A stretch of 64,000 nucleotides of DNA from an uncultured SAR116 cluster alpha proteobacterium (GTDB lineage Bacteria; Pseudomonadota; Alphaproteobacteria; Puniceispirillales; Puniceispirillaceae). Position 1 is the stretch's first letter, and the number at the start of each line of letters is the position of its first letter. Location: the NCBI GenBank assembly GCA_902596655.1, contig CACJUX010000003.1, forward strand, positions 11,649 through 75,648, read 5' to 3'. The position numbers were made by a program, and so were the translations under genes. The notes beneath the pieces are model-generated. The model was not told the origin of the DNA, made no database searches, and saw nothing but the letters and a program-made list of their open reading frames with translations. Of this stretch, positions 24,112 to 43,549 are shown one piece after another.

Positions 24112-24127
24112 CGGCATAAAAATTGCA
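24112..24127 (+). promoter_or_regulatory. Sigma-54 promoter match upstream of fliD
   Basis: CGGCAT-AAAAA-TTGCA with canonical GG-N10-GC spacing, ~100 nt upstream of ATG 24230. It lies downstream of the TTG 24104 ORF-track start, which argues against that start. Confidence 0.55.
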
Positions 24128-24229
24128 GGTTTGTGTCGTAACGTTTCAAGAAACAGCAATCGGGTCAGCTATCGAGATCAGCAGCTAAACCTTTTGCCAA
24201 AGGTCAAAACCAGAAAGCAGATTGACACC

Positions 24230-25858
24230 ATGGCAACCGACTATCTGTCAGCGTTAAATGTGGGTACGGGACTAAATACAACTGAGATTATAGACTCACT
24301 TGTCGAGGCCGAGCGCGCGCCAAAGGCAAAAATGATTAACGACAACAAAGCAGAACGCACAGTTGCTATTTCTAGTCTCGGTTCTGTAAAAACTGGGTTC
24401 GAGTCTTTTGACACTTCACTTGAAAACCTCGATGGAACCACCGGTCTAAACATCTCTTCGACTATCACAGCCGTAGATTTAGCTTTTGCTGATAGCAAAG
24501 TTGCAAAGGCCTTTAGTCATCAAATTGGTGTCTCACAACTAGCTTCTGCGCACACATTAGTTTTTGGGGGCTATTCGGGCGAAAGTGCGGCCATCGGCAC
24601 AGGAACTCTGAATTTTTCATTTGGTACATGGGCATCAGATGGAAGTTTTTCAGCAAATTCGGATCGCACCGCAACTGACGTCACAATTTCGTCAACTAAC
24701 TCAACTTTGGCAGGTCTAAGAGATTCAATAAATGATGCAGATTTGCAGGTCACAGCATCAATAATTAGAACTGATGACACAAATTATGCTTTAGCGCTTA
24801 AATCGCGCGAGGGTGCTAGTCATAGCCTACAAATTTCCGCGACTGAAAATCCCGGTGGAAGTGGCCTTAGTTCCCTCGCCTACACATCAGTTGATAATTC
24901 TATCCAAAGTTTAGCTGGTGCAAATGCAATAATGACTCTTGACGGTGTCTCGATCACTCGCCAATCCAACGTAATTGATGATCTCGTCGATGGTGTCTCG
25001 ATGACACTGAATTCTACGACCAGTCAAAATGGAACAATCACTGCAGCGTATGACAGTAGCACTGCACTGACAGCAATGAAAACATTGGTGGACGAGATAA
25101 ACAAAATTCAAACTGAGCTTCGTTCACTCACTACACGCGGCATCAACGGTCAAGAAGCAGGTGCTCTAGCGAGCGACAGTCTTGTAAAATCGCTTCAACG
25201 TCAACTGAGCGCTTACACAACGACCCCCATTATCGGCTTTGGAAATTCGTCAGTATATCTTGCAGAATTTGGTGTAACAACCAACCGCGACGGGTCAATA
25301 AGCCTTGATGAAACGACATTTAATACGCAGTTTGCTGCAAAACCAGATGATTTTTCAGCCATCATGCAAAGCCGTGTCACGACTGATACTAACCTCGTGA
25401 AAGGAACTGTGACTGGCAGTCTATACAAACCTGGCATATACGCTTTTGATATTGCGAACGACGGCAGTGCAACATTAGACGGCACAGCGATGACTCAAAC
25501 TATAAGCCGTTATAGTATAGTGTCGGGGGATGCCGCAGGGCTGATATTGGACGTAACAGGCGGTGGTCTGGACACAAACATCTATATTGGTACTAGTCTT
25601 TTGGACAGTCTTCGGACGTTTTCACAAAACATCGTGAAAACTGGCAGTGATTTAAATACAAAGATTACTCGATATAATGACGATCTGATTAAGTATTCGG
25701 ATCAATTAACAAGTTTAGACGAGAGTGTAGCGGCCGCAAGGGCGCGTTATGTGGCAAAATTCAACGCAATGGAAAAGGTTTCCGCTAGCATGAAGAAAAC
25801 CGGTGAAAGTCTGACCAATATGATGGACGCTTGGAAAGCTACTATGAAAAACAAATAG
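24230..25858 (+). CDS. fliD: Flagellar filament cap protein FliD
   Basis: The N-terminus (MATDYLSALNVGTGLNTTEIIDSLVEAERAP) and the C-terminal helical region (RYVAKFNAMEKVSASMKKTGESL) are typical of FliD. A central IN-type segment is present (IMTLDGVSITRQSNVIDDLVDGVSMTL). Confidence 0.9.
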   Translation: MATDYLSALNVGTGLNTTEIIDSLVEAERAPKAKMINDNKAERTVAISSLGSVKTGFESFDTSLENLDGTTGLNISSTITAVDLAFADSKVAKAFSHQIGVSQLASAHTLVFGGYSGESAAIGTGTLNFSFGTWASDGSFSANSDRTATDVTISSTNSTLAGLRDSINDADLQVTASIIRTDDTNYALALKSREGASHSLQISATENPGGSGLSSLAYTSVDNSIQSLAGANAIMTLDGVSITRQSNVIDDLVDGVSMTLNSTTSQNGTITAAYDSSTALTAMKTLVDEINKIQTELRSLTTRGINGQEAGALASDSLVKSLQRQLSAYTTTPIIGFGNSSVYLAEFGVTTNRDGSISLDETTFNTQFAAKPDDFSAIMQSRVTTDTNLVKGTVTGSLYKPGIYAFDIANDGSATLDGTAMTQTISRYSIVSGDAAGLILDVTGGGLDTNIYIGTSLLDSLRTFSQNIVKTGSDLNTKITRYNDDLIKYSDQLTSLDESVAAARARYVAKFNAMEKVSASMKKTGESLTNMMDAWKATMKNK

Positions 25859-26505: not shown

Positions 26506-26553
26506 TAAAATACAATAATTTCAGATAATTAAAATATTTTTCGGGAGAATGAC

Positions 26554-26646: not shown

Positions 26647-29073
26647 ATGGCAATGAACATTAACACTAATGTTGGCGCTCTGATGGCATCAGCCGCCGCA
26701 AACTCCGTCAACAAGTCGATGGAACAATCAATGGAGCGGCTTTCTACTGGCCTGCGGATTAACTCTGCAGCCGATGATGCAGCTGGTTCAGCAATCACAA
26801 GCCGTCTCACATCTGAGATTAAAGGAACAAACCAAGCTATTCGTAATGCTATGGATGCCCAAGCAATGATCGAAACTGCTGAGGGTGCTCACATCGAGGT
26901 TGAGGCAATTCTTCAGCGCATGCGCGAGTTAGCCGTTCAGGCTGCCAACGATACAAATTCTGATTCAGATCGTGGAAATCTGCAGCTTGAGATCTCACAG
27001 CTTTCAGCTGAAATTGACCGCATCGCAGAGACCACAACATGGGCGGGCGTTAGCTTGTTGAATGGTAGTGACACCAGTTCCGATAAGTCGCTTTCTTTTC
27101 AAATTGGATCAGGTCCGGGTATAGGTGAGACCGTCACCCAGACAATCAGCTCTATAAATGCAAAAGCACTTGGTGTTACAGGTAATGCTGTTGCTCCCGA
27201 GGTTGAGTCCAACTACGTATCTGTGACCGGTGAGGGAGTTTTGGCGACCGAAGGTAATACAATCACATTTGGCGGAAAATTCAATGCAGGGGACGTGTAT
27301 AAAGTCACGATTGGCAACAAGCAACATTCAGTTACTGCTACAACTGGTGACGGATACACCGATGATGCTTCTGGTCTCGCAGCGCAATTAACAGACGCAA
27401 TTCGTGCAGAGCAAATCTCTGGCACAAACCAGCATGAGGGCATCACAGTTGTTGATCACGGAGATGGTTCACTCTCAGTATTTGCCGAACCCGAAATAAC
27501 AAAAGTGAAAGCTGAAGAAGGTGGTGCTGCTGATACGCAGACACTAACCTTCAACGAAGCCGACAAAACCTTTACGGTTGGCGGCACACATGAAGACGGG
27601 GACATCTACAAGCTCACAATCAACGGCGTTGACGTTGCAGTAACTACTGATAACACTACTAACAGTGAGTATAATGCAACAAAAGCTGGTGTTGCTGCTG
27701 AAATCGTCGCAACTATCAATGCTGCCGCAGGTGGTTTGGCTGAACTGGCGACTGGTGGTGTTAGAGCATTCGTCGATGGTGATGACCCCACAAAGTTCCG
27801 CGTTGTGCAAGACGTCTTATTCAGCGCTGAGGAATATACGGCAATAACTCCCGGGGTTTCACCAACAATAACTGCAGCAGAAGTATCGGGAGCCTCAACA
27901 ATAGATTTTGCGAACACACCTAGTGAAGGCGATAAATTCACCACCACGATCAACGGTGTCACAGTTGAAATCGAGCTGACAGCTGACGACGGCTATGACC
28001 GTACAGCTACCGGTGCAGCGCTGAAGATGGAGGCTGCCATACAAGCCAAAATTGATAGCGGTGAACTTAAGGGCGTCACAGTTGGATCCACTAATGCGCA
28101 AATTACAGTCACGCAAAGTGGTACTACCGTTGAAGTTGGCACACCCGAAGTCATTGACGTTAGTTCTAGTGGTTTGATTGCGCAATACTCCGATGCAAAC
28201 TCCAGATTCGAGTTTGATACCGGTGCCAACTTCACAGCTGGTACAAAAGGTACTCTTGCAAATGGCGACACGGCTCGAGTGAGTATCAATGGCGTTACCA
28301 TTGAAGTAATAACCGATACGACTGACGGTTATGACGATAGCGCTGATGGTTTGGGCAGAGAGATGACAGACCTCATCAACAATAATGAGGAACTCAAAGC
28401 TCAGGGTATCACTGCGGCATTCACTAAAGCGGACAGTGGCAACTTAGCAGCTTTGGTAACGCTATCTTTCACACCACAGCTATCCAAAACTCAGTTTGTC
28501 AAAGCTGAAGACATTTCTACCAGCCAAAACGCTGCCGATATGTCAACAACGTTGACACTCAATAAGAGTGCTTTCGCACACGGTGACCAGCTTTCGGTTG
28601 ACGTTGAGGGCACAAAAATTGAGCTCACAATCGACACATCAGACAGCTTTGCGGATGATAAGGCTGGTGTAGCAGCACAGATTAAGACAGCTATCGATGC
28701 GCAAGGCATCAATGGTGTAACGGTTACTGATAATGGTGACGGTTCAATCTTGATCGAAAAGCCATCTGCGGCCAATGTGACTAGTGCAGTAGCTGCAACA
28801 AAGACCATTGAGGTTATCGACGCTGCATTCGTAACGTTGAACACGCAGCGGTCTTCACTTGGTGCGATTTCTAATCGCTTAGATAGCACAGTCTCTAACC
28901 TGACAAACGTTGTAACGAACCTTGAAAGCGGTCGTGCACGTATCCAGGATGCAGACTTTGCTGCAGAGAGCACAAACCTTGCCAAGCAGCAGATCCTCCA
29001 GCAGGCTGCAACTTCAATGCTGGCTCAGGCAAATGCTTCTAAGCAATCTGTACTTAGCCTTCTGCAGGGCTAA
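26647..29073 (+). CDS. fliC: Flagellin (808 aa, large hypervariable region)
   Basis: N-terminal D0/D1 (MAMNINTNVGALMA..LSTGLRINSAADDAAG) and C-terminal D1/D0 (LGAISNRLDSTVSNL..ATSMLAQANASKQSVLSLLQG) are conserved. The ~530-aa central region is built of repeated modules. Confidence 0.95.
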   Translation: MAMNINTNVGALMASAAANSVNKSMEQSMERLSTGLRINSAADDAAGSAITSRLTSEIKGTNQAIRNAMDAQAMIETAEGAHIEVEAILQRMRELAVQAANDTNSDSDRGNLQLEISQLSAEIDRIAETTTWAGVSLLNGSDTSSDKSLSFQIGSGPGIGETVTQTISSINAKALGVTGNAVAPEVESNYVSVTGEGVLATEGNTITFGGKFNAGDVYKVTIGNKQHSVTATTGDGYTDDASGLAAQLTDAIRAEQISGTNQHEGITVVDHGDGSLSVFAEPEITKVKAEEGGAADTQTLTFNEADKTFTVGGTHEDGDIYKLTINGVDVAVTTDNTTNSEYNATKAGVAAEIVATINAAAGGLAELATGGVRAFVDGDDPTKFRVVQDVLFSAEEYTAITPGVSPTITAAEVSGASTIDFANTPSEGDKFTTTINGVTVEIELTADDGYDRTATGAALKMEAAIQAKIDSGELKGVTVGSTNAQITVTQSGTTVEVGTPEVIDVSSSGLIAQYSDANSRFEFDTGANFTAGTKGTLANGDTARVSINGVTIEVITDTTDGYDDSADGLGREMTDLINNNEELKAQGITAAFTKADSGNLAALVTLSFTPQLSKTQFVKAEDISTSQNAADMSTTLTLNKSAFAHGDQLSVDVEGTKIELTIDTSDSFADDKAGVAAQIKTAIDAQGINGVTVTDNGDGSILIEKPSAANVTSAVAATKTIEVIDAAFVTLNTQRSSLGAISNRLDSTVSNLTNVVTNLESGRARIQDADFAAESTNLAKQQILQQAATSMLAQANASKQSVLSLLQG
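27253..28761 (+). repeat. Five tandem ~75-90-aa IN-motif-like modules in the flagellin variable region
   Basis: The units are centred on VTIGNKQHSV, LTINGVDVAV, TTINGVTVEI, VSINGVTIEV and VDVEGTKIEL. Each is followed by a DGY/D-rich loop, an Ala-rich helix (e.g. ASGLAAQLTDAIRAE, KAGVAAQIKTAIDAQ) and a G(I/V)TV..D.GDGS strand. Confidence 0.75.
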
Positions 29074-29093
29074 GATTAACAAAAAAACGGAAA

Positions 29094-30228: not shown

Positions 30229-31509
30229 TCACCTAATGTAATCAAAAAGAGTTTGTGAACCTATCTTTACAAATGCCTGCTGAGCTGCATCGCGATTCAC
30301 AATTTGTGACTGTAGTTCTGTTATAAGCGCGGCAAGATCAGCATCTTCAATAGAAGAAATATTTTCAGTCATTAAAAGAAGTCTCCTATCAATAACCTCC
30401 TGTTGCATTTCGCCTTTGCGTATTTGCGCACCAACCGATGTCCTTTCAACATTGATATGCTCTAATACACTTTTCAAACGGGCTATGCCTGCATTAGAAT
30501 TAGCCAAAGGCGTGGCGACGCCAGACTCCAGGTCAACTTTGACACCCTCATCCACACTTGCCTGTAAGCTCAACATTGTTGCACCTGTAACGCCAGTTTC
30601 AGTCGCAGTTAGGCTAAAATTCGTACCGTCCTCTCGTGCAAAGATAACTGTATTATTGTCTAATTTGGCGCTAAAACCTTTTTTGTTATCAAGTTTTTCA
30701 AATGCCTCCATCACTGCAACCATAGCCTCATCGCCATCGCCTGCGTTGAGTGGCAGTGTATTAAATTGTAAATCATCATCTGCACCAAAATTTTCACCCG
30801 TCAAATTAATGTGCAGCACCTCACTACCTTCAGCCTTTACACCATTTTCCTGAAAATTAAGAGTAATATTGGCTTGTTTGATAGTGTTTTGATTGAGATT
30901 ATTTTCAATGATTTCAAAAATCTTGAAAACACTTGTGGCTGAACCACCAGCCTTTGCCCGCAGAAAAATTCCTGCACCGTCTACACCTGTATCCATTTTC
31001 ATGGATTCTGACACCTGAACAGCATGGATGCCCCTATCACCCTTGTATTCGACGGCACCCTCAGAGTTTTCTACAAACGGCATCACACCAACTTTGTAGC
31101 CGCTAAAAAGATAATCACCTTTCTCATCCGTTGCATTGGCAATGCCCTTAAGGCCCTCCTTTAATTGGCCAATTTCTTTAGCTATGGCCTTTCTATCAGA
31201 AGGACTGTAGGTGTCATTATTAGCCTGAATTGATAACTCATAAGCTCGTGTAATTATGTTCGCAGCATCACCCAGCATATTTTCTACAAGTGTTAATCGC
31301 TTATCCGCACGTTGAATATTTGTAGCAAATCTCTCAAGAACGACTTTTTGTCCCTTAACAAATGATATGTTCGCCGCTGCAACAGGATCATCAGACGCTT
31401 TCATCACGTTCTTACCCGTCGCGATTTTTGCTTGTGTCTGCTGAATTTGACCTGTCAGCGATTTAAAGCGCTCAATGGATTGCTCGTTATATAATTTGGT
31501 ACTGATCAT
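30229..31509 (-). CDS. flgL: Hook-filament junction protein FlgL (HAP3)
   Basis: 426 aa with flagellin-like N- and C-terminal helices (SDDPVAAANISF.., RTSVGAQIRKGEMQQEV..EDADLAALITELQSQ). Position follows flgK. Confidence 0.9.
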   Translation of the reverse strand: MISTKLYNEQSIERFKSLTGQIQQTQAKIATGKNVMKASDDPVAAANISFVKGQKVVLERFATNIQRADKRLTLVENMLGDAANIITRAYELSIQANNDTYSPSDRKAIAKEIGQLKEGLKGIANATDEKGDYLFSGYKVGVMPFVENSEGAVEYKGDRGIHAVQVSESMKMDTGVDGAGIFLRAKAGGSATSVFKIFEIIENNLNQNTIKQANITLNFQENGVKAEGSEVLHINLTGENFGADDDLQFNTLPLNAGDGDEAMVAVMEAFEKLDNKKGFSAKLDNNTVIFAREDGTNFSLTATETGVTGATMLSLQASVDEGVKVDLESGVATPLANSNAGIARLKSVLEHINVERTSVGAQIRKGEMQQEVIDRRLLLMTENISSIEDADLAALITELQSQIVNRDAAQQAFVKIGSQTLFDYIR

Positions 31510-31533
31510 AATTTAACGTCCTCAATCGCTGAG

Positions 31534-34500
31534 TTATCTGAAGCTCTCAAGCAGTGAATTAAATAGTTCACGAGCAGTTGAAAGGACCCTAGCAGATGCT
31601 TGGTAAGCTTGCTGCTGCTCAATAAGATTGGCGGCCTCTGTATCAAGATTAACGCCAGAAAAACTTGCCTCTGCCTCTAAGCTAGCATCTTTGAGCGCTA
31701 TTGCGGCATTTGCACCCAACTCACTGGCCTGAACTAGGCTTCCTAGTTTCGACATCGTTTCACTGAAAATTTTTTGAAACCCGCCCCTACCATCGCTTCG
31801 ACCGTTCCCACTTTGCAGGCTTGTTAAGTCAAGCATTGCAGTGGCATCGCCAATACCCTCGCCGTTGTCGGCGATGTGAAACTCATCACCGTCCACCAAT
31901 GCACCAAAAAAAGTAACGTTGAAGCCCTCAGCTTCACAACTTCCATTGGAGTCTAGCGTCCGATTAGCAAGCGAAGTTCCAGATTGCGTATCAATAAATT
32001 CAACATAGCCTGTTTTTTCATCAAGAACTTTAATCATTATGTCTCGGTGAAGTTTGGGACCCTCAACTGGTATTGCGTCGTATTGTAGAGAGAGTTTTTT
32101 CGCGCCATTGTTGCCAACAATAATAATCAGTTCTTCATCTGGTAAATTTGACAAGGTGAGGCGTTCTCCAACGTTGCTTTTTGCAGTACCAGTGAATTGT
32201 GGCGCTTCAATTTCACTGTTGAGAGAATTGGCTTTTAACATCGCGCCCTGACGGACGAGATCAAAATCTAAAGCGGTATAGCCACTGCCAATAGTGGTAG
32301 AGGATGTTGCAACTCCTGATGTTAGATCTACCGTTCCGTCTGGCCAGATATTTGCCTGAAGGGTAATCGCAGTGGACCCTACTGTTCCCCCCTCAGTCAT
32401 CGTAAAATTAAAGTTGCCACCATCGGGCCTTGTGAACCACAACACATCATTGTCTCCAATGTGCGCAGAATATCCATTTTTATCAGAAAGGCTATCAAAC
32501 GCGTCTTTAATGGCAACCAGAATTTCAGTTTCGTCACCGGATGCCAACGCCGCTGTGGTGAATGTCAGGTCTCCAGTTACTCCACCTAACCCGTCATCCA
32601 GTGTAATTTGAAGTGTCTCATTTCCTTCAGCAGCGACTCCCCCTGTTTTAAAATCCAATCCAATCCAAGCTTGGTTTGAGTAAAAATTTGTTGGCACTTC
32701 ATCATTTTGCATGATCCCAAAACGCTGCGCAGCAGCCGTATTGTTTGCAATTAAACCGTCATCAACCACAGTAATTTCCGACTTGCTGAGTGTACCACCA
32801 TTTGAGGCAACCTGTAGCTTCAAGTTGGCATCAAAAAAAGCGTTTAATCTCCCTGGCTCGCCACCACTAACAATCACCTCACCATCAATCATTGTTAAGC
32901 TATACTGTTGTCCTTCAAATGACAGGTAGACAACATCACCATCTACTGGCGGCGTTTCCATCTCCCCGGAAATCAGATTGCCCGCGCTTGAATAAGACAA
33001 ATTAACCGCGTTATCGGGACCACCACTAACGGTGATGTTGCTGCCATCGCTTGTGAATATATAGGTGCCCCCTTGATAGCCAACGGTCATCGACCCAGCG
33101 CTGTTTATCGCACTTTCTGTTAAGCCAACATCGCTGAGAGTGAAGGAATATGGAGTTTTAAGACTTACAAGGCCCTCAATATAAGCGGAAGGTGCATTCT
33201 TCCGTAATTCTCTGGCCACTGCAATCGCGACATCTGCGCCTGTTGTTCCGGCTACATCATCGCGATCAACCGTAGCACTCAGGCCGTCAATGTTTACTGA
33301 ATATGATACTTGTTTGGCTGACGCAAATTTTCCATTTGGAGAGGCTTCATTCGTATCAATGCCCTCCAAATAGTCAAAGGTTATGGAAGAATTTGAGGTA
33401 CTAAAATCAGTGTCTATTAAAATTTCAGACTGCGAGGCGGATCTCTGGATCTCCACATCCATATAGCCAGAAACGCCAGATTCGTTCCGATAGTCTCCGT
33501 TATAAACAGCGCCAGAGTTAAAAGCTCCACTCTCATCCATCTGAGACTGCCAGTAAGCTATTTTCGTGTCAGTTGGTGTACTGCCTGCTATGTGCCTGCC
33601 TTCCCGCGTAAAAATTTGGATATTGGAGGCCTCATCAATTTTGTTGGTTATTACAGCTGACACTGTCCTTCCAGTCGTAAGTGAGATGCCACCAGAAGAA
33701 AAGCGATTATCTGACAGACTGATAGTCAAATTACCGTCGGCACCAGAAGCAAAACCACCAAGCTCTGATAATTTTACAGCCGAACCGTCACTTACCTTTA
33801 CACCGGTCAAACTACCAACATTAAGCAAATCAGAAATTTGCCTCATGTTTCGCCAACCGTCACTATCTTCATTGAAATTGGATTGATCTAACGTAAATTT
33901 GAATTCCTCGGTGACGTCATTGTCATTAGCGTCCTTGGAAATAATTTTCAGAGAAAGGTGAGTAGCGCTCAGCATGTCCGCGTCACTTAACCCAAATTTC
34001 ATGCTAGATTGTTGGGATAATGAAAATAAATCAATTGATGTAAATTCAGCAGGAATGACAGTAACAGGTCCGCCGGTTAAAAATTGTGTGGCGGAAATTA
34101 TTGATCCGTCATTCGAGAACGTATCAGCAGCAGACGGCAGACCAGTGGATGAAGATTGATTACTTGTTGTGGCGGCCATTTCAGCATCACTGCGGTTTGC
34201 AGCATCAGCTGAAACAAGCAATGGTGAAGCTGCAGCAAATTCGTGCGGACGCCTAATTGAGACCCCAACGCCGGAAGCTGTGCCTGAGATTGGATCTATC
34301 ACAAATTGATCAAAGTTTTCGGCCTTACCCCTAAATTGAATAGCCAAGCCAGGTAGATCCACCTTTGCTCTGCCGCTTGTTACGAGGGTTCCATCTTCTT
34401 TGCGTCCATTCCAAAGTTCACTTTTCGCATCATATGAAAAAGTGATTTTATCAGATGTCAGCAAACTAAAATCATGAATTTCAGCTTCTGCTTTCGCGGC

Positions 34501-35520
34501 ACCAGCATTCGTTGGATTCTCGGTCAAATTTATATCGATATCTTGAAATAAATTTTTCCCAGGAAGGCCCTCTAAGTCCAATCCACTTTTATGTAAGAGA
34601 TTCATGTCTTGAACAAATTTGAAGGCAAGGTGATCAATTTCGTTCATGACACTTGATATTACTGCGTAGCTCTCAGCAAACCCAGCCAAGCTGCCGTCAC
34701 TAACCTGAGAAGTGTAAATATTGTCCACGCCCGGTCCGACAACATAAGAAAGATGTGTCTCACTTGGATCCAACCCCAACAATCTGAAGGAATTGTTATC
34801 AACGAGGACGGGCCCACTTCCAGATGTACCAATCTTTAAATTAGCAGCGCCACTTTCAGCCAAAGAAACACTCATTCCAGCGGAAGTTGTAATTTGGTCA
34901 ATTAATGCATCGCGCCTATCTAACAACGCGTTATTGACTTTGACCCTTCCAGCCGCCGCAATTTGTTGATTCAATAAACTGAGTTCCTCAGTTAGCATAT
35001 TCAATGAGGCCAATTCTTGTTTGGCTTGAGTGATAATGCCTTCCTTTAACTGCGACACAATTTTAGAAACATCGGTGAAATTGTCAGCCACCATCTTAGC
35101 ATCTTCCAGCGCAACAACCCTCGGCGCCAGATCCGATGGTGCGGTTGCTATTTCTTGTAAACTAGAAAAAAACTGACCGATTGTCGTTCCAAGATTGGAT
35201 TCGCCTGGCAGCAGAATGTCCTCTAATTGCTTCAAGCCCGCGTAAAGAGCTTCCTTGGACTCTGCACTCGCGGTCGCGCTTCTCGCTTTATTCAACAAAA
35301 ATTCATCGAAAGATCTTCGAATGCCAGTGATACGCACTCCAACACCAGTTTGTCTTTGAATGCCAGTGACGCTTCCTGTGCCAGCAGGAATTTCCTCAAG
35401 GCCTGCTTCGCGTCTCTTATATCCATCGGTATCAATATTGGCGATATTCTGACCCGTGACGGCCAACGATTGGCGATATGCCTGCAGGCCAGATTTACCA
35501 ATGTCAAAAAGGTTGGCCAT
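31534..35520 (-). CDS. flgK: Hook-filament junction protein FlgK (HAP1), giant (1328 aa)
   Basis: The N-terminus has the rod/hook motif (QNIANIDTDGYKRRE). The C-terminus is FlgK-type (VNLDTEAANLIEQQQAYQASARVLSTARELFNSLL). Position is between flgJ and flgL. Confidence 0.9.
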   Translation of the reverse strand: MANLFDIGKSGLQAYRQSLAVTGQNIANIDTDGYKRREAGLEEIPAGTGSVTGIQRQTGVGVRITGIRRSFDEFLLNKARSATASAESKEALYAGLKQLEDILLPGESNLGTTIGQFFSSLQEIATAPSDLAPRVVALEDAKMVADNFTDVSKIVSQLKEGIITQAKQELASLNMLTEELSLLNQQIAAAGRVKVNNALLDRRDALIDQITTSAGMSVSLAESGAANLKIGTSGSGPVLVDNNSFRLLGLDPSETHLSYVVGPGVDNIYTSQVSDGSLAGFAESYAVISSVMNEIDHLAFKFVQDMNLLHKSGLDLEGLPGKNLFQDIDINLTENPTNAGAAKAEAEIHDFSLLTSDKITFSYDAKSELWNGRKEDGTLVTSGRAKVDLPGLAIQFRGKAENFDQFVIDPISGTASGVGVSIRRPHEFAAASPLLVSADAANRSDAEMAATTSNQSSSTGLPSAADTFSNDGSIISATQFLTGGPVTVIPAEFTSIDLFSLSQQSSMKFGLSDADMLSATHLSLKIISKDANDNDVTEEFKFTLDQSNFNEDSDGWRNMRQISDLLNVGSLTGVKVSDGSAVKLSELGGFASGADGNLTISLSDNRFSSGGISLTTGRTVSAVITNKIDEASNIQIFTREGRHIAGSTPTDTKIAYWQSQMDESGAFNSGAVYNGDYRNESGVSGYMDVEIQRSASQSEILIDTDFSTSNSSITFDYLEGIDTNEASPNGKFASAKQVSYSVNIDGLSATVDRDDVAGTTGADVAIAVARELRKNAPSAYIEGLVSLKTPYSFTLSDVGLTESAINSAGSMTVGYQGGTYIFTSDGSNITVSGGPDNAVNLSYSSAGNLISGEMETPPVDGDVVYLSFEGQQYSLTMIDGEVIVSGGEPGRLNAFFDANLKLQVASNGGTLSKSEITVVDDGLIANNTAAAQRFGIMQNDEVPTNFYSNQAWIGLDFKTGGVAAEGNETLQITLDDGLGGVTGDLTFTTAALASGDETEILVAIKDAFDSLSDKNGYSAHIGDNDVLWFTRPDGGNFNFTMTEGGTVGSTAITLQANIWPDGTVDLTSGVATSSTTIGSGYTALDFDLVRQGAMLKANSLNSEIEAPQFTGTAKSNVGERLTLSNLPDEELIIIVGNNGAKKLSLQYDAIPVEGPKLHRDIMIKVLDEKTGYVEFIDTQSGTSLANRTLDSNGSCEAEGFNVTFFGALVDGDEFHIADNGEGIGDATAMLDLTSLQSGNGRSDGRGGFQKIFSETMSKLGSLVQASELGANAAIALKDASLEAEASFSGVNLDTEAANLIEQQQAYQASARVLSTARELFNSLLESFR

Positions 35521-35523
35521 AGT

Positions 35524-35832
35524 TTACTTCGCCTGCTCACCAAGCTGACGCACCAGTGCATCTGCAATTCCAAGATTGATCTTATCCGACAAATTGTCAG
35601 CATATTCGCGATCAAGCATTTCCTCGTAGGTTGTCTTTGCAGAACTTCCAAAAAGATCCTCGGCAAGTTTTGTCTTGCGCGACTGCTTCATGAATTCATT
35701 CAAGAAAATCGCTTCAAATTTCTCAGCGGCAGCGCGCAGATCGTCATTTTCAGTTGGACTTTTGAAAACCTTTTGATCTGCTTGCATCAAGCTGGCCTGC
35801 ATGTCTGCTGGGATAATATTTACGTCAAGCAT
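35524..35832 (-). CDS. flgJ: Rod-binding protein FlgJ (single-domain, no muramidase domain)
   Basis: 102 aa with the rod-binding motif AAEKFEAIFLNEFMKQSRKT. The ORF stops before any glucosaminidase-type domain. Confidence 0.8.
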   Translation of the reverse strand: MLDVNIIPADMQASLMQADQKVFKSPTENDDLRAAAEKFEAIFLNEFMKQSRKTKLAEDLFGSSAKTTYEEMLDREYADNLSDKINLGIADALVRQLGEQAK

Positions 35833-35846
35833 CGAGAATACCCCGT

Positions 35847-36980
35847 TTAAATTACAATAATTTCGGCACGCAATGCGCCCGCCTCACGCAGAGCACCAAG
35901 TATTTCAACTAGATCAGAAGCACCAGCACCAACAGCATTGATTGCGTCAACAATGTCAGAGAGCTCAACGCCAGTATCAAATACAAATGCTCTCGCAGTC
36001 TCCTCTTCAACATCCAATTCAGTGTCATCTATTGTTGTCTCACCACCGGGGGTCACTGTGGCCCCCGCCTCAGTGGTGGTAACAGTTGGATCACCCTTGA
36101 CCACTTTCTTGTCTTCTTTAACTTTGACAGTAAGAGAGCCGTGAGTGACTACAGCTGGGGTGACACGGACATCACCACCAATAACAATTGTACCACTACG
36201 AGCATTGACAATAACTTTCGCAGCAGGTCGCGCAGGTTCCACCTCAATATCTTGGAGCAGGCTGACAAAGGATACTTTCTGACCAGGGTCAGCTGGCGCA
36301 CGAACCTTGATGGATGAAGAATCGAGGGCAACTGCAACCGTTGGCCCAAAAACTTCATTTATTGCGTCGGCCACCTTTATTGAGGTGCTAAAATCCGATT
36401 GGTGCAAGTTTAGGATAATGTTATCCAATGTTTGGAAGGGTGTTTCTACCATCCGTTCAACCGATGCACCGCCGGGTATTCTACCGACAGTTGGGATGTT
36501 TACGGTCAATGATGACCCGTCGTTTCCAGTCACACCTAAGCCACCAACGGCAAGATTTCCCTGCGCCACGGCATAAGTTTCACCGTCAGCGCCCAACAAA
36601 GGTGTCATTAGCAAAGTGCCACCACGAAGAGATTTGGCGCCACCAATTGCCGAAATGGTAACATCCAAACGCTGACCGGTTTTGACGAAAGCCGGCATTT
36701 CAGCAGTCACCATCACAGCAGCCGCATTAGCAGCCGTGATATTGCCGACATCAGTCACTAGGCCAAATTGTGATACCATTGATTGCAACGATTGTTTGGT
36801 CAACCCATTCCCACCATCACCAGACCCTGCAAGTCCGACAACGATGCCATAGCCAACCAGCTGATTGGACCTGACACCAGCAATTGATGTCAGATCTTTG
36901 AGGCGGTCACCGAAGGCGTTAGTTAAACCGCAGACTAACAGCGCTGTGGCGATTGCAATTATTTCTAGGGTTTTAAGCAT
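35847..36980 (-). CDS. flgI: Flagellar P-ring protein FlgI
   Basis: 377 aa with a signal peptide. Conserved segments [30 protein letters not shown] and [15 protein letters not shown]. Confidence 0.95.
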
Positions 36981-36994
36981 TGTTTACTCCATCC

Positions 36995-37684
36995 CTAAAA
37001 AGGTGAGATCGCTCTCATCGTTCTGCTGAGCCAACCCTGACGGGAGGAGTCCGCAACCTCGCCGGCACCCACATAGGTGATTTCAGCATCGGCAATGCGG
37101 TTTGATACAATCAAATTGGTGGCGGAAATATCCTCCGGACGAACAAGGCCCGTTAATCTGACATATTCGTCACCGTTATTCAGGCGCAGTTTCTTCTGAC
37201 CTGCAATCTCCATGTTTCCATTTTCAAAGACACGGGTCACCGTCACGGTCAAAAACCCTGTCAGCGAGTTTGACTGAGCCGCGCTGCCGGATCCAGAAAA
37301 GCTACGAGAAGTACCTGCTTTAAGCGGATCCGTTCCCTTGTCAAAGCCACCGGTAAAAATGTTTGGAATTCCAACTGGAAGGTCAACATCAAAAGCGTCA
37401 GTCTTGGCCGAGGCTGCGGTCTGCGATTTTGTAGCCGCGAAAGTTTCCGACAGGCTTACGGTAAGAATGTCACCAACTTCACGCGCCCGGCGGTCCGTTG
37501 CAAACAAACCTCCCTTAGATGCTACATAGATTGCGCCAGTGGGTGCGCCATGATCTTCAGGCATGTGAGCTTCAGGATAGATGGGATCAAACGCGTAGGA
37601 TGCTTGATTTTCGACATAGGTGGAGCAACCACTCAAAAGTAGTCCAAGTGCAAGGATAAAAAATACTAAAAAACGATCATACAT
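36995..37684 (-). CDS. flgH: Flagellar L-ring lipoprotein FlgH
   Basis: ATG 37684 gives MYDRFLVFFILALGLLLSGC (lipobox). Conserved FlgH core is present (DRRAREVGDILTVSLSE, ITVTRVFENGNMEIAGQK). The longer 37747 start would overlap flgG. Confidence 0.9.
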   Translation of the reverse strand: MYDRFLVFFILALGLLLSGCSTYVENQASYAFDPIYPEAHMPEDHGAPTGAIYVASKGGLFATDRRAREVGDILTVSLSETFAATKSQTAASAKTDAFDVDLPVGIPNIFTGGFDKGTDPLKAGTSRSFSGSGSAAQSNSLTGFLTVTVTRVFENGNMEIAGQKKLRLNNGDEYVRLTGLVRPEDISATNLIVSNRIADAEITYVGAGEVADSSRQGWLSRTMRAISPF

Positions 37685-37709
37685 GAGTTTTACCTGATGA
37701 TTCTGATGT

Positions 37710-38498
37710 CTACAGGTTTTGCGAGATAAACCGAAGCATCTCATCAACTGAAGTGATTGATTTTGAGCTTACTTCATACGCGCGCTGTGTCTCGATCATC
37801 TCGACCAGCTCCTGAACGACATTAACGTTTGCAGCCTCAAGCGACCCCTGAATAAGACGCCCCAGGCCCTCTTCCTGAGGGTTGCCCACAATGGGGTCGC
37901 CACTTGTGTCCGTTCGGGTAAAGAAACTCTCACCAACTGGTTGCAGGCCAATGCGGTTTGTGAAATCAGCAATTGTAATTTGGCCAACCGCTTCAGCGTT
38001 GTCAGCACCCTGCTGGAGAACGCTAATGATGCCGTCCCGTGATATGTTGATTTGTGATGCACCGGCTGGAATTTGAATCTCAGGCTGAACAACATAACCA
38101 CTCGCCGTGGTCAGTGTGCCCTCAGCATTGGTCGAGAATGAACCATTTCTTGTGTAGCCAATACGCCCATCAGGAAGAAGCACCTGAAAGAACCCAGTTC
38201 CCTCAATTGCAAGGTCCAAAGAATTATCTGTAGTTATCATGCTACCTTGGGACATGTTTTTCTGGGTATTGACGATACGTGCGCCAGTGCCAACCGAAAA
38301 GGAGGAGGTCAGATTGGTTTGTGCTGTTGTCTGGTCGCCAGCAACTCGGCGAACCTGATACAGCAATGTTTCGAAATTGGCACGGTCACGCTTAAAGCCA
38401 GTAGTGCTGACGTTCGCCAGATTGTTGGCGATGATCTGCATGCGAGTTTGCTGGGCGTTGAGGCCAGTCTTGGCCACGTGCATCGAACTGGTTGACAT
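37710..38498 (-). CDS. flgG: Distal rod protein FlgG
   Basis: 262 aa with N-terminal ANNLANVSTTGFKRDR and C-terminal LEAANVNVVQELVEMIETQRAYEVSSKSI. Confidence 0.95.
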   Translation of the reverse strand: MSTSSMHVAKTGLNAQQTRMQIIANNLANVSTTGFKRDRANFETLLYQVRRVAGDQTTAQTNLTSSFSVGTGARIVNTQKNMSQGSMITTDNSLDLAIEGTGFFQVLLPDGRIGYTRNGSFSTNAEGTLTTASGYVVQPEIQIPAGASQINISRDGIISVLQQGADNAEAVGQITIADFTNRIGLQPVGESFFTRTDTSGDPIVGNPQEEGLGRLIQGSLEAANVNVVQELVEMIETQRAYEVSSKSITSVDEMLRFISQNL

Positions 38499-38575
38499 CA
38501 GTTTTCTCCTGCAAGAAATGTTAATTAGTCAAAGGGTAGCAAGAGACGTGCCAAACCAAAACGGCAGAGTCAGAA

Positions 38576-39331
38576 TTAGCTAGGCATTCGCATTAGACTG
38601 GCACCAGCTTCGTCTGCCTCAGTGGCAGATGATATCAACTTAATGTTGACCTCATAGGCACGCTGGTCCTCAATCGTGTTGACGAGTTCCTCAGTGATGT
38701 TAACGTTGCTGAGTTCAACATGTTTTTGGACAATTGTCGGCACTTGATCGGCCAGTGGGAGGCCCCCACTCTCAGCCCTAATTTCGCCATCTTCAAATTT
38801 TTTTAACCTCTCACCGGCGCCCGATGTCATGCCAATCGTGGCGACGAATATTTTAGTCCCCGGCTCGGAGCCAAGTGGCTGCACAAAAATATCTCCGTTA
38901 TCTGCAATCTGGATAGACCGATATGCGCCAATCTTTATCGGTGTGAGATTCTTATCCAAAAAAAGATGCTTTGAGCCATTGATCAAGAAGCCATCATTAT
39001 TGACATTTAGATCGCCTCTTCGGGTCAGTGAGGGGGCGCCAGGCCCCTTCACCATAAAATAACCATCGCCTCTCAAAGCAACATCCATATCACTACCGGT
39101 TTGAGAAAGCGTGCCGGGCTCTGACTCAAAAATATTACTATCATCTCGGACTGCCAGGGCCCTTGTTTGGAAGGTGTTCTCGGCCATCAAGAATGCTGAC
39201 CCAACTGATTTAGTTCCCAAATCACGCCTGTAGCCAGGAACATTAACATTGGCCATATTTTGGGCGCGCACCGACCGATTGTCATAGATATTGTTCAGCG
39301 TATTGAAAGCTGTATAAATCAACCTATCCAT
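38576..39331 (-). CDS. flgF: Proximal rod protein FlgF
   Basis: 251 aa with N-terminal AQNMANVNVPGYRRD and C-terminal ELSNVNITEELVNTIEDQRAYEVNIKLI. Position is between flgE and flgG. Confidence 0.85.
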   Translation of the reverse strand: MDRLIYTAFNTLNNIYDNRSVRAQNMANVNVPGYRRDLGTKSVGSAFLMAENTFQTRALAVRDDSNIFESEPGTLSQTGSDMDVALRGDGYFMVKGPGAPSLTRRGDLNVNNDGFLINGSKHLFLDKNLTPIKIGAYRSIQIADNGDIFVQPLGSEPGTKIFVATIGMTSGAGERLKKFEDGEIRAESGGLPLADQVPTIVQKHVELSNVNITEELVNTIEDQRAYEVNIKLISSATEADEAGASLMRMPS

Positions 39332-39364
39332 AACATTCTCCTGCCCTTCCTAAAACCTTAACGA

Positions 39365-42300
39365 TTACATCCGGATATTAATGATTGTCTGGGTCAGACC
39401 AGTTGTTGTTTCAATAGCCTTTGCAGATGCCTGGAAGTTTCGCTGAGCAGTAATCAGATTGACCAACTCTTCAGTGATATCAACGTTGGAACGCTCGAGC
39501 GAACCAGACAGAATGTTGCCAAAGCCCTCAGAACCAGCCTCTCCGACCTGCGGCGCACCAGAAACAGCTGTCTCCGTGTAAGTCGCGTTACCAATCTGTT
39601 TCAAACCGTTTTGGTTGTTGAAGTTGGCTACAACGATCTTACCAAGTGGGTTATTCTGACCATTCGTGTAGTTTGCCCGGATTGTACCAGATGAGTCGAT
39701 CTCGATACCATCGAGACGTCCCGAAGTAAAACCATCCTGCTCAACCGTTAGCACCGAGAAGGGCTGCGCCAGCTGTGTAGAGGTTGAGAAATCAACATCC
39801 AATGAGATCGACAGTCCCTCACCCTGCTTTTCGTAATGCACTAAGTTTTTTGGGCTAACAAGCTTACCTGTCTTATCAAAAGTCAATTCACCCTCATCGA
39901 TGTATAGAGGGAAATAACCATCAACGATATTCTCAGGAGGGTTGGTTACAACCTCGCCATCTGCGTCAACGAAAAGAGCAACCCCATCTTTGTCCGTCGC
40001 CTGAACCAGATTAAAAATCTCCGGGACAGTCCCAACGCCCAAAGGTACCTCATCAAGGCCGAGGCGGGCAGCGCCTTTAACTTTAATTGTCGAGTCTGAG
40101 CCCGTGGTGCCTGATGAAAAAGTGAAGTTATTGGAGTCGCTGCTGTAAGAGACAGTCACACCACCAATCTGCACACCTGTTACCGGATCAACAATCTGGT
40201 TTATGCGTGTCTGCAATGCTTCAGCCAATGTTGTGCCAACATAGGATGTTGCCGGCACTTCAATGATCCCGCTAATGCCGTTCACCGAGACATTAAAGAT
40301 ATTGTCACCAGCCTGATTTGAAAGTTTGAAAACATTAGTGAGTGGTTCATTCGCGCTAGCACCAACTGCAGTAGCCGAAGTTGCTTTGAGACCTTTACCA
40401 GAAGTAAAAAGAAAGCCGTTCTTTGAGGCTCCCACGCCAAATAAGGAATTATCACCATTACCGATGACAGTGGCATCAACATCATAAGGTTGGGCCACAC
40501 GAGCGCCTGTTGTCGCACTGATCGCGTAACGGCCAACCTGAATATTAGAAGCTTTCTGATCAGTGCTAACACCATTGGCACCATTAGCTGCGATTGCCTC
40601 TCCTGTGGTGCCGCTCGAGATTGTAAAGTTCTGTAGTTCACTATTATAAGCGACATTGACACCAAATCGTTTATCGTTCGGCTGGATTTCTTCTCCTGTG
40701 GCCGTGAAGGCTGAGCCAAAGTAAACCTCACCACCCCGGATCGCCACGCGCTGTGCGTTATCAGCATTGGTCAGACCCAAATTGTTTGTGCCTGTCTGTG
40801 TGGCTGAGCCATAGGCAGAAAAAGAGTTAAAGTTACTGTCGGTACCTGACCCCAGCACTGTACGATCAACCTCAAATTTCAGACGCTGGTTGATTGAATC
40901 ATAGCCAACTTTTACAGGTGGATTTTTCTCATCAACCCAATCAACAGAGCTTTTTTCACCCACGGTACTTTCAATAGCTGTATTGCTAAGCGCGGAATAT
41001 GTTCCTTCCTCACCTTCCACACTTACTGAAAATACGTTCGTGGTAAGGGTAGTTGTTATCGAAACCTCGGCATTGTCATCGCGCGATATAAAGAGTTTTG
41101 TGATGGTAGCGTCGGCCGGTGCAGGGTCCACATTAGCAACCGTTGAACCCACATTCCTCCAGTTATCCGCAGTGGTTTCAGCAACCACATCACCGGCAGC
41201 GTTGACAAAGGTAAAGGAATAACCCTTTAGATCTACTCCATCTAGAGCTGTCACCAGAGCTGCCATGGGTGTTCCAGCATCACCATTCGCAAGAGCCCCA
41301 GTCGCAATGGTCAAATCATTCGAATTATCAGAACCACTGCTTAAAACTATATTCATGGTTTCTCCACCACCTAAAGTAGCTGCTGCCGGTTCAGTGACCA
41401 CCAATTGTCTATGAAAATTCTGCAAACCAAGAGAAGTCAATTTAGTCGCTAAAGTAGTAGCTCCATTTAGTTCCTCCGCAGTATTGTCGATCCTCCAAGC
41501 GCTCGCAACAAATGCGCCTTTTTCAGTGGTGTTTTCTGTTGTGCTCTGAAGTTCCCTCATCACAATTTTTTGGCTCGAATATATCTCTCTTGCACCTTCA
41601 TATACAGGCGATGTACCCTCAAAAAATGCTTCCATGGTTGGCTCATCATCGGTGGGGCTGGTAAGCGCAAAAATGTCCGTTGCAGTTCCAACAGTGATGT
41701 TGAAATCCTCATCAGCAACAGCAAGTCCAGAAGTACTAACGTCGATATATCCTGCATTACCTCCATCTGCAGGCGTAACCGAATTTATAACGAGGGTCCG
41801 CCCATTAAGGTCACCACGTAATCCGGTATCACCTGCAAGCATCAGGCTTCTTCCTTGCTCAAAATTAGTTGTATCAGCAACGTAGATGCGGAGCCTATTT
41901 TCGGTAGCAGCAAACTCGATCAAGTTTGTTCCATTGCCGCTAACGGCCTCTGCTTCTTTGAACACCGATAAAGCTGGACGTTTGTTGAAATATGAGTGGA
42001 CCATAAAGTGCTTATCTGTAGGGTCATCGGTTCGCTCAACCTCAATCATAGTAGAATACTCATAAGGTTCAGCGATTGCCTCACCTTTTGTTTTGACGAA
42101 TTGCAATCCACCAACACCAAGAGGATCATCTGAAAATTCACGGCCATACTCATTGAGTGTTTCATTGATACGAATTTGCGAATGAGCGAGAAACTGTTCC
42201 TTTGTAAAATCTGGCGATGTGCCAGAAATCGAGAAGTCGCTTCCCATAGCTTCAGTAACAAAGCTGTCTGTTCCCAAAAGCTCCACAGCAATTTTATTTG

Positions 42301-43549
42301 TCAAGTTCGAGACTGTTCCATCTGCACCAACACGCTGGAAATCGAATGTGATGGTGTCGTCAACATTCTGCTCAACCTGGAACTTGCGGTCATCACCATA
42401 GGCAGCGTTGATTGCGCGCTCCACCTCGGCGGCTAATTGCGTAGCGTTATAGAGGCCAGGGTTAATGTCAATGCTAACTGGCTGGTCTGAGTCATCAACA
42501 TTGACCAGAAGGAAATCCTTGCCCCAGTAAACATCACTTCCAGTGTTGCCGGCTTCACGTGTTGCTTTGAATTGAAGTGGGTCGGTAACAATCTCAACAA
42601 GCTTGTCACCCTCCTCACCAAAGTCGAAACTACTCGACTCACCAGTGACCGATGCCGGCTGTGACGGCACTTTTGTCTGCAGATCGTCGAGTTTGTAAAG
42701 CGGTGAGCCCTTACCCTCAATGAAGTAGTTGTCATCAGGAATAGAAGTTGTCTGTTGACCAAATCGGTCAACGAAGATTTGATTGCCCGCATCATCAACT
42801 GCACTAACAAGATCCGGGTCAATTATAGTGTCATTAATTACCAAACGAGTATCGTATTTGTTTGTCGGGTCTTCGGCAGTTGCTGCTTGCGTCTTGATAA
42901 AATAGACCGTTGCAATTGTTGGATTACCCAAATCATCAAAGATTGTAATCGATGTTGAATTAGAAAAAGTGTTTGGGTCATTCGGATTAAACTCATACCC
43001 ATCCGAGAAAGCAGATCTATCAGTTACGACGTCAGATGCCGCATTGACGTTCACACCAAGAGTTATGTTTGACGTCGCCTGAGGATCACCAGAAGTAACC
43101 GGCAATTGCAGAGGAACTGCACTGTCAAGATCCTTTGCGGTCACAGAACCGTCCGTGTTAACCGGATATGTGAGAAGAAATTGACCTGCAGAATCAACCA
43201 CATAACGGTCGTTGTTTACACTTAATGATCCGTTTCGAGTGTAAACTGTTTGGCTAGCGGTCAAAGATGGCTTGAGGGCAAAGTAACCCTGACCGGATAT
43301 CGCAAGATCAAGTGCGTTAAGAGACGAGGCGATGTTACCCTGGGTAAACTGCTGCTTGATACCCTTTAGGATAGTACCAGAACCAATTGATGATGAAGCA
43401 TTCTGCAACGGTGAAGTCGCAAAAATATCACCAAACTCGACGCGGCTTCTCTTGAAGCCCGTAGTGCCAACGTTGGCGATATTGTTAGACGTCGCCGAAA
43501 TATCAGCCGACGATCCATTCAATCCTGTCAATGCGGTATAAAATGACAT
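39365..43549 (-). CDS. flgE: Flagellar hook protein FlgE, giant (1394 aa)
   Basis: N-terminal SNNIANVGTTGFKRSRVEF and C-terminal LERSNVDITEELVNLITAQRNFQASAKAIE hook/rod motifs. It sits in the canonical flgD-flgE-flgF slot as one uninterrupted ORF. Confidence 0.9.
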   Translation of the reverse strand: MSFYTALTGLNGSSADISATSNNIANVGTTGFKRSRVEFGDIFATSPLQNASSSIGSGTILKGIKQQFTQGNIASSLNALDLAISGQGYFALKPSLTASQTVYTRNGSLSVNNDRYVVDSAGQFLLTYPVNTDGSVTAKDLDSAVPLQLPVTSGDPQATSNITLGVNVNAASDVVTDRSAFSDGYEFNPNDPNTFSNSTSITIFDDLGNPTIATVYFIKTQAATAEDPTNKYDTRLVINDTIIDPDLVSAVDDAGNQIFVDRFGQQTTSIPDDNYFIEGKGSPLYKLDDLQTKVPSQPASVTGESSSFDFGEEGDKLVEIVTDPLQFKATREAGNTGSDVYWGKDFLLVNVDDSDQPVSIDINPGLYNATQLAAEVERAINAAYGDDRKFQVEQNVDDTITFDFQRVGADGTVSNLTNKIAVELLGTDSFVTEAMGSDFSISGTSPDFTKEQFLAHSQIRINETLNEYGREFSDDPLGVGGLQFVKTKGEAIAEPYEYSTMIEVERTDDPTDKHFMVHSYFNKRPALSVFKEAEAVSGNGTNLIEFAATENRLRIYVADTTNFEQGRSLMLAGDTGLRGDLNGRTLVINSVTPADGGNAGYIDVSTSGLAVADEDFNITVGTATDIFALTSPTDDEPTMEAFFEGTSPVYEGAREIYSSQKIVMRELQSTTENTTEKGAFVASAWRIDNTAEELNGATTLATKLTSLGLQNFHRQLVVTEPAAATLGGGETMNIVLSSGSDNSNDLTIATGALANGDAGTPMAALVTALDGVDLKGYSFTFVNAAGDVVAETTADNWRNVGSTVANVDPAPADATITKLFISRDDNAEVSITTTLTTNVFSVSVEGEEGTYSALSNTAIESTVGEKSSVDWVDEKNPPVKVGYDSINQRLKFEVDRTVLGSGTDSNFNSFSAYGSATQTGTNNLGLTNADNAQRVAIRGGEVYFGSAFTATGEEIQPNDKRFGVNVAYNSELQNFTISSGTTGEAIAANGANGVSTDQKASNIQVGRYAISATTGARVAQPYDVDATVIGNGDNSLFGVGASKNGFLFTSGKGLKATSATAVGASANEPLTNVFKLSNQAGDNIFNVSVNGISGIIEVPATSYVGTTLAEALQTRINQIVDPVTGVQIGGVTVSYSSDSNNFTFSSGTTGSDSTIKVKGAARLGLDEVPLGVGTVPEIFNLVQATDKDGVALFVDADGEVVTNPPENIVDGYFPLYIDEGELTFDKTGKLVSPKNLVHYEKQGEGLSISLDVDFSTSTQLAQPFSVLTVEQDGFTSGRLDGIEIDSSGTIRANYTNGQNNPLGKIVVANFNNQNGLKQIGNATYTETAVSGAPQVGEAGSEGFGNILSGSLERSNVDITEELVNLITAQRNFQASAKAIETTTGLTQTIINIRM

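Follow-up and report, generated by a model that had tools for sequence, protein, structure and literature searches.

A sequence-recognizable module shared by the hook protein and both hook-filament junction proteins of an uncultured SAR116-cluster bacterium

The hook protein FlgE and the hook-filament junction proteins FlgK and FlgL of an uncultured SAR116 cluster alphaproteobacterium contain an unannotated module of ~120-135 residues. The DNA analyzed here, hereafter called the window, is a stretch of 64,000 nucleotides from contig CACJUX010000003.1 (assembly GCA_902596655.1, positions 11,649 to 75,648, forward strand) and represents a large flagellar gene cluster. A six-frame profile scan detected exactly three module copies in the entire window, all on the minus strand (Table 1), and sequence and profile comparisons argue that the three segments are homologous. 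We consider it probable that this is an autonomous, lineage-restricted module that was copied by whole-domain insertion among genes for axial proteins, with a structural role being the most likely one.

The closest relationship was observed between FlgL and FlgK, whose copies form the most similar pair. BLASTP aligned FlgL residues 212-345 with FlgK residues 950-1084 (59 of 135 positions identical, or 44%, with one gap, 100 bits, E=2e-26), and this module segment was the single strong local match between the two proteins. An initial annotation of the window, which was made from the sequence alone, had counted about four identities in ten with one single-residue gap; its naming of FlgL, FlgK and FlgE and its conversion of nucleotide to residue coordinates were likewise right, as judged by NCBIfam scores and by arithmetic on gene ends. 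In pairwise BLASTP, the match of FlgE was confined to residues 728-778 (42% identity to FlgK, E=0.001; 35% to FlgL, E=0.07). When the FlgL and FlgK copies were combined with one orthologue fragment in a profile, FlgE received 13.7 bits, and none of 3000 shuffled sequences reached 10 bits. We then used a hidden Markov model (HMM) of 12 module copies from other proteins, without any FlgE sequence (alignment A2, ~133 positions). With this HMM, FlgE residues 722-838 matched profile positions 17-127 and received 30.2 bits, the highest control scores being 10.3 bits for 3000 global shuffles, 8.4 bits for 3000 local shuffles and 1.5 bits for the reversed FlgE. When A2 was compared by hhalign with a profile made from FlgE plus two orthologue fragments, a probability of 94.9% and E=4.6e-8 were obtained over 59 columns, which correspond to the first half of the module. 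The divergent FlgE copy proposed in the initial annotation is therefore real. An explanation based on chance or composition could draw on the marginal pairwise scores of FlgE and on the host proteins all being rich in T, S, G, A and D; for FlgE alone as for all three segments, it is ruled out by the FlgL-FlgK E value, the excess of the FlgE score over its shuffled and reversed controls and the hhalign result. We regard it as extremely improbable, together with its companion explanation, considered below, that the FlgL-FlgK pair is an assembly artefact or a recent duplication.

The signature motifs AFdxLxDKKGYS and FTRxDGxNF are both present in the FlgL and FlgK copies. The FlgE copy, whose first half is well conserved and whose second half is strongly diverged, retains ALDGVDLKGYS and has no FTRxDGxNF. 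Both the profile alignment and an AlphaFold model speak for a collinear alignment of the FlgE copy with the others, in which ITKLFISRDDNAEVSITTT pairs with the last two strands. The initial annotation had matched ITKLFISRDDNAEVSITTT to the FTRxDGxNF strand pair over a ~30-residue insertion, a detail that has to be revised in favor of the collinear alignment. When copies from relatives (described below) are included, a strong common signature is seen in the FlgK, FlgL and third FliD copies, and the copies of FlgE, other FliD copies and flagellin copies are more diverged. Across copies of four host proteins, the charged or aromatic turn positions R87, D89 and G73 and the DKKGY motif are near-invariant. 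No Pfam-A family was detected by hmmscan in any of the three module segments at E<=10, and an NCBIfam scan provided no name for the module. Flagellin_IN (PF07196), which we take to be a motif common to flagellins and hook-associated proteins, was absent from the Pfam listing for the three module segments and for the flagellin repeat region.

The module DNA of FlgL and FlgK is 50% identical overall and 33% identical at third codon positions, and therefore its synonymous sites are saturated. The duplication is old, and neither an error of assembly nor recent copying accounts for it, because third-position identity is this low and because orthologous FlgL, FlgK and FlgE copies occur in independent metagenomes; the initial annotation had taken the same view. 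Orthologous copies were found at the same sites in independent assemblies, and the exact FlgL is also present in NCBI assembly GCA_902616315.1. In a neighbour-joining tree, the copies cluster by host protein with weak bootstrap support (57% for FlgK, 100% for FlgE and <50% for FlgL together with the third FliD copy), and a 99% split separates canonical copies (FlgK, FlgL and the third FliD copy) from divergent ones (FlgE, the first FliD copy and flagellins). The copies go back a long way, and each now evolves along with the protein that carries it. Between FlgL orthologues, identity is 43% in the module and 66-67% in its flanks, so that the module evolves fast, as is typical of exposed domains.

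Table 1. Module copies, host genes and other flagellar genes of the window (positions are those of the whole stretch)
Feature	Coordinates	Strand	Details
Module copy in FlgL, residues 207-339	30493..30891	-	A2 HMM 163.4 bits; six-frame scan
Module copy in FlgK, residues 946-1079, within large insert	32284..32685	-	A2 HMM 175.9 bits
Divergent module copy in FlgE, residues 722-838	41036..41386	-	A2 HMM 30.2 bits; hhalign
flgL, hook-filament junction protein 3	30229..31509	-	426 amino acids; TIGR02550; Pfam Flagellin_N residues 8-139
flgK, hook-filament junction protein 1	31534..35520	-	1328 amino acids; TIGR02492; Pfam FlgK_D1 residues 96-325
flgE, hook protein	39365..43549	-	1394 amino acids; TIGR03506; Pfam FlgE_D2, Flg_bbr_C, Flg_bb_rod
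fliC, flagellin	26647..29073	+	808 amino acids; Pfam Flagellin_N, Flagellin_C; five tandem outer units
fliD, filament cap (from probable start)	24230..25858	+	Pfam FliD_N, FliD_C
fliD, full open reading frame	24104..25858	+	
flgB, flgC, flgD, flgE, flgF, flgG, flgH, flgI, short rod-binding FlgJ-like gene, flgK, flgL		-	
fliS, two sigma-54 activators, fliF, fliG, fliH, fliI, fliK			upstream of fliD and fliC

The assignment of the three host proteins is well supported by NCBIfam models: FlgL scores 247.6 bits with TIGR02550 (curated cut-off 127.2), FlgK 248.2 bits with TIGR02492 (cut-off 170.75) and FlgE 274.4 bits with TIGR03506, a model of the FlgE/F/G subfamily (cut-off 70.25). The equivalog models for FlgE stay slightly under their cut-off (373.6 versus 400) because of the FlgE insert. 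FlgE and FlgK are about two to three times as long as every solved homologue (1394 residues compared with 402-851 for FlgE, and 1328 compared with 553-673 for FlgK). Alignments to solved structures are limited to residues 4-233 and 1202-1393 of FlgE and to residues 1-501 of FlgK, and therefore the surface-exposed variable region of both proteins is extended by very large inserts, of ~970 residues starting out from D2 in FlgE and of ~740 non-canonical residues in FlgK. No Pfam family matched these inserts outside the core domains. It may be added that G+C content is 0.42-0.45 over fliD, fliC, flgL and flgK (24001-36000), 0.47-0.48 over flgE and 0.49-0.53 in most of the window; A+T content is highest in the genes whose variable outer regions are largest.

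In all hosts, the module is situated in between the N- and C-terminal segments from which the conserved inner tube is made (D0/D1, plus D2 in FlgE). In FlgE it occupies the middle of the insert 234-1201. In FlgL it fills the slot in which other FlgL proteins (Legionella, Xanthomonas) carry D2: Legionella FlgL (5yti) aligns to FlgL residues 4-214 and 327-424, and 5yti residues 213-314 match the module by position and not by sequence. In FlgK the module is located ~450 residues past the canonical region, in the extra insert, and the canonical region to about residue 500, which aligns to residues 63-515 of Burkholderia FlgK (4ut1), is present besides it. As the initial annotation had supposed, the module does not belong to the annotated domains of ordinary FlgK, FlgL or FlgE, given that it has no Pfam match and falls outside the parts aligning to solved structures. 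According to published models, the outer domains of flagellin and FlgE, like D2 of FlgL, are on the outside of the tube (PMC6155364). The position of the module, taken together with models of FlgL, FlgK and flagellin outer domains, suggests that it would be surface-exposed on the hook and the junction rings.

The location in FlgL raises the question of whether the module is simply the ordinary D2 β-sandwich already shared by FlgL and FlgK, diverged past sequence recognition. The occupied slot is indeed the D2 slot of Legionella and Xanthomonas FlgL (PMC6155364), and the module is β-rich. However, FlgK keeps its canonical region in addition to the module, no FlgL or FlgK chain of the PDB was recovered with the module profile at E<=1, and 4ut1, 5ziz and 5yti are absent from the best 50 Foldseek matches. 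In addition, a predicted 11-residue helix has no counterpart in the description of the eight-strand D2 (PMC6155364), and FlgE, FliD and flagellins have the module as well. We find this explanation highly doubtful.

To determine the distribution of the module, 1.84 billion representative proteins were scanned exhaustively with HMMER (E<=1e-3). Only 15 matches were obtained, 12 of them flagellar: orthologues of FlgL and FlgK, a FliD C-terminal fragment with 3 module copies (P0002), the flagellins P0010, P0014 and P0016, and short fragments. P0009, P0013 and P0015 (1178-2026 residues) were rejected as non-flagellar repeat proteins; most of their repeats score ~7 bits (the best, in P0015, 17.8), and their totals reach the threshold because the repeats are many. 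Word-indexed searches found one close fragment with the FlgL module and two with the FlgE segment. The FlgE copy is ~76% conserved in two FlgE fragments (P0021 and P0022), and the FlgK copy is kept in five FlgK orthologues (P0004, L025, L026, L028 and L029).

Metagenome contigs, one scan of which used five canonical module copies, provided the genomic context. In two syntenic long-read contigs (L025 and L026), whose genes are broken by frameshifts and whose retrieved flanks stop before flgE, so that copies were counted in FliD, flagellin, FlgK and FlgL, FliD contains ~six module copies in a ~2.2 kb block (8441-10571 in L025 and 8545-10675 in L026). In L025 this block falls between the equivalents of window FliD residues ~458 and 501. 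The ~six copies fall into two triplets that resemble each other, pointing to the tandem duplication of one triplet. Another FliD array, in a scaffold, contains a run of N (L023, 11-1760), and its copy number is uncertain. FlgK of L025 and L026 has one strong module copy and one to three weaker ones, and the flagellin of L026 has one or two. FlgL of L025, L026 and L029 is without the module, such that the equivalents of residues ~205 and 327 abut, and the neighboring FlgK has the module; the FlgK of L028 (71% identical) and the FlgL of L030 (58% identical) carry it. In these syntenic contigs, the module is present or absent as a whole. In other genomes, too, several axial proteins carry the module; FlgK of the syntenic contigs always carries it, and FlgL is often without it. 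Among the sampled genomes, none was shown to have the module on all five proteins (FlgE, FlgK, FlgL, FliD and flagellin). No copy was found at 21 GTDB loci with FlgL ~33% identical, and none in IMG/VR. The nearest FlgL relatives among GTDB genomes were metagenome-assembled genomes annotated as Gammaproteobacteria. This history fits an ancient whole-domain insertion in each gene, followed by vertical descent, with tandem amplification in FliD and lineage-specific absence from FlgL.

The variation in presence and copy number between close lineages, and the faster evolution of the module relative to its flanks (43% versus 66% identity), might also be expected if the module were a variable surface shield that alters the antigenic or receptor properties of hook, junction and cap, e.g., against flagellotropic phages or grazers, with gain, loss and copy number reflecting diversifying selection and not mechanics. 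However, fast change and variable copy number are general to exposed domains and do not discriminate between roles, and the strong conservation of motifs from one host protein to another suggests that a specific structure has been retained. We therefore consider the shield explanation quite unlikely.

The initial annotation had further proposed that a single domain family decorates the entire axial structure, including the filament, because the strand-strand-helix-strand pattern of the module resembled that of the flagellin repeat unit. FliC of the window contains five tandem units of 74-90 residues (residues 204-712, nt 27256-28782, plus strand), each scoring 74-96 bits with a unit HMM, and the flagellin fragment P0010 contains three units of the FliC type. 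The flagellin unit profile had no Pfam match, and its sole match among PDB sequences was marginal (phage gp76 of 9zdk, residues 88-152, E=0.0056). The similarity in the pattern of secondary structure stood, but a relationship in sequence did not. When the profile of the tandem outer units of the window flagellin (alignment A3) was compared with the module profile by hhalign, a probability of 1% was obtained (E=0.05, 15 columns), and the flagellin unit HMM scored FlgK, FlgE and FlgL at no more than 4.1 bits. Conversely, the A2 HMM gave 4.6 bits for FliC and 3.1 bits for FliD, inside the reversed-sequence null of 3.9-4.8 bits, i.e., no module was detected in either protein. Flagellin units were consequently rejected as members of the module family at the sequence level. 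In this genome, the family covers the hook and the junction only, and not the filament and the cap; the broader proposal gains support from the FliD and flagellins of relatives. With regard to FliD, it should be noted that its open reading frame begins with TTG and encodes 42 extra residues unlike FliD, and that FliD models begin aligning at residue 43-55. The true start is probably the ATG at 24230 (MATDYLSAL...).

The fold of the module was predicted with AlphaFold2. The model of the FlgL copy, made with A2, had a predicted local distance difference test score (pLDDT) of 78.6 and a predicted template modelling score of 0.76. It is β-rich, with eight strands in the order strand-strand-strand-helix and then five strands, the helix being formed by residues 56-66. 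The predicted folds of FlgL and FlgE share this order of elements, as the initial annotation would lead one to expect, with a low-confidence loop in place of one strand in FlgE (pLDDT 61), the two models not being independent. The best weak Foldseek matches of both models were the D2-D3 domains of E. coli FliD (5h5v), FliD 9m6h and outer domains of phage sheath and nozzle proteins, and the FlgE model had a weak match to Pseudomonas aeruginosa CbpD (7sqx, E=0.016). In BFVD, predicted phage structural proteins (tail sheath and tail tubular B) resembled the model with TM-scores of 0.5-0.63. Searches of PDB sequences with A2 yielded no convincing relative; the best match was a designed protein (E=0.0026), and a nozzle protein of cyanophage P-SCSP1u (8i4m_A, residues 159-238) was marginal (E=0.02). 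On these models, the fold does not seem to be a recognizable known domain and may at most be distantly like exposed add-on domains of flagella or phage tails, which hints that the two may draw on a common pool of decoration domains.

Such matches also bear on the possibility that the module is an adhesin- or lectin-like binding domain displayed on all exposed flagellar parts and serving in attachment to hosts, polymers or particles, having spread among axial genes as these suit display. FliD is a known adhesin in other bacteria, and it has ~six module copies in relatives. The near-invariance of R87, D89, G73 and DKKGY in four host proteins exceeds the needs of a spacer, and the weak fold matches include CbpD, phage sheath and nozzle outer domains and lectin domains. 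On the other hand, no significant match to a characterized binding domain was found in Pfam-A, among PDB sequences or by Foldseek against the PDB, the conserved turn residues are equally explicable as structural, and the conserved motifs are missing from the copy of FlgE, which in the assembled structure far outnumbers the others. A binding function is rather unlikely in our judgment.

In the explanation that we favor, the module would have been copied among genes for extracellular axial proteins by whole-domain insertion in a narrow clade of uncultured marine bacteria, with FlgE, FlgK and FlgL as hosts in this genome, and FliD (in tandem arrays) and flagellins as additional hosts in relatives. 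In the assembled flagellum, the module should protrude outward from the hook and the two junction rings, where it would add an outer layer to a flagellum with enlarged flagellin (808 residues), hook protein and FlgK. Like-with-like lateral contacts, for example between FlgK and FlgL across the junction, might stiffen or smooth the transition from the hook to a thick filament. A structural role is the most likely one, at low certainty, and is favored because flagellin, hook protein and FlgK are enlarged together, because the most similar copies are those of FlgK and FlgL, which would be neighbors in the junction according to the known order of axial proteins, and because a D2-D2 contact has already been proposed for ordinary junction proteins (PMC6155364).

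Several observations weigh against this explanation. FliC and FliD of the window are without the module, and therefore a continuous homotypic layer from hook to cap is impossible in this organism. The natural FlgL variants without the module indicate that junctions can assemble without it, at least where FlgL is concerned. In FlgE, the copy has no FTRxDGxNF, so it may not form the same contacts. The agreement of the FlgE model with the FlgL model carries less weight in that the former was built from an alignment including other copies, and Foldseek searches of the PDB with both models gave no match at E<=1e-3 (TM-scores 0.3-0.5). A more far-reaching idea is that the module is self-associating and forms a universal coat, in which like-with-like contacts would join the hook, the FlgK ring, the FlgL ring and, in relatives, the filament and cap. 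If this were true, one continuous protein coat would extend across the hook-filament transition in symmetry and stiffness, and gene-to-gene spread would have been selected, since every segment must carry the module for closure. We view such a coat as unlikely.

Accessory domains on both junction proteins have been described previously. The D2 of Xanthomonas FlgL (5ZIZ/5ZJ0) structurally resembles the D2 of Burkholderia FlgK (4UT1), and it was proposed that FlgL D2 'decorates' the ring and makes a quasi-homotypic D2-D2 contact with FlgK (Hong et al. 2018, PMC6155364). Like these domains, the module is an accessory domain of both junction proteins, is placed in the D1 helical region of FlgL and would be at the ring exterior. 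Unlike the known D2 pair, an eight-strand all-β sandwich with similarity in structure only, the module copies are 44% identical and have a predicted helix; moreover, the module is additional to the canonical region of FlgK and extends to FlgE, FliD and flagellin. In flagellins, some outer domains resemble the folds of FliD D2 or hook-associated proteins, and these domains were proposed to have been acquired by recombination between flagellar genes (PMC11532411). Both cases involve outer domains gained by re-use of domains from flagellar genes. However, that study concerns fold-level similarity in flagellins, whereas the module is visible in sequence, is present in three non-flagellin axial proteins of one genome and in five axial proteins across the clade, and shows natural presence/absence variants at defined sites.

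The D2-D3 head domains of FliD (E. coli 5H5V and 9M6H) are, like the module, exposed β-rich domains of an axial protein and were the best fold matches in the PDB, but the match is weak (E=3e-3 to 0.2, TM-scores 0.32-0.42) and FliD of the window is not recognized by the module HMM. Giant flagellins built from repeats and thick filaments are known in marine Oceanospirillales (Thomson et al. 2018, PMC6248924); in that report, FlgK was not discussed, and FlgE and FlgL were mentioned only as sequences for telling flagellins apart. The organism studied here is also a marine bacterium with an enlarged flagellin containing tandem repeated outer units, but the enlargement extends to hook and junction proteins, and the module family differs from the flagellin units of the window. 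Finally, outer decoration domains of phages (Agrobacterium phages Milano and 7-7-1, and gp23 of P-SCSP1u, 8I4M) show a weak likeness in fold (TM-scores 0.41-0.63). Like the module, the decorations of phage tail sheaths and nozzles are exposed add-ons on helical or tubular assemblies; none of these matches is significant, and no module was detected in IMG/VR contigs.

In the literature, the coverage of which was incomplete, we found no account of one sequence-recognizable domain common to FlgE, FlgK and FlgL. The remark of the initial annotation that it had not seen such a decoration described was too strong with respect to the principle (PMC6155364, PMC11532411). The module is a new domain family and an unusually clear case of a known principle, the exchange of outer domains among flagellar genes, and it does not overturn current understanding. 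No part of the flagellum is less understood or more variable than the outer domains of its axial proteins, the origins of which have mostly been deduced from fold resemblance. An exchange that is directly readable in sequence offers a clean natural experiment on how axial proteins gain decorations, and a defined HMM is now available for the annotation of a domain that so far belongs to no family. It also flags a clade with exceptionally large FlgE (1394 residues) and FlgK (1328 residues) as a target for cryo-electron microscopy.

Several other features of the gene cluster were observed. Between fliS and fliD, the cluster contains a gene (22246-23976, minus strand) for a CLC-type chloride channel that has a CBS domain, with the same placement in the syntenic metagenome contigs L025 and L026. 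Four open reading frames of 114-373 residues in or beside the flagellar cluster (45312-46433, 46430-46774 and 29411-29812 on the plus strand and 25864-26361 on the minus strand) had no significant Pfam match. The one of these that follows fliC (133 residues) is also a gene call in an NCBI assembly contig (L027). Compared with typical sizes, FliK (660 residues; 10060-12042, minus strand) and FliH (436 residues; 13878-15188, minus strand) appear long. FliK could be a long hook-length ruler that matches the enlarged hook protein.

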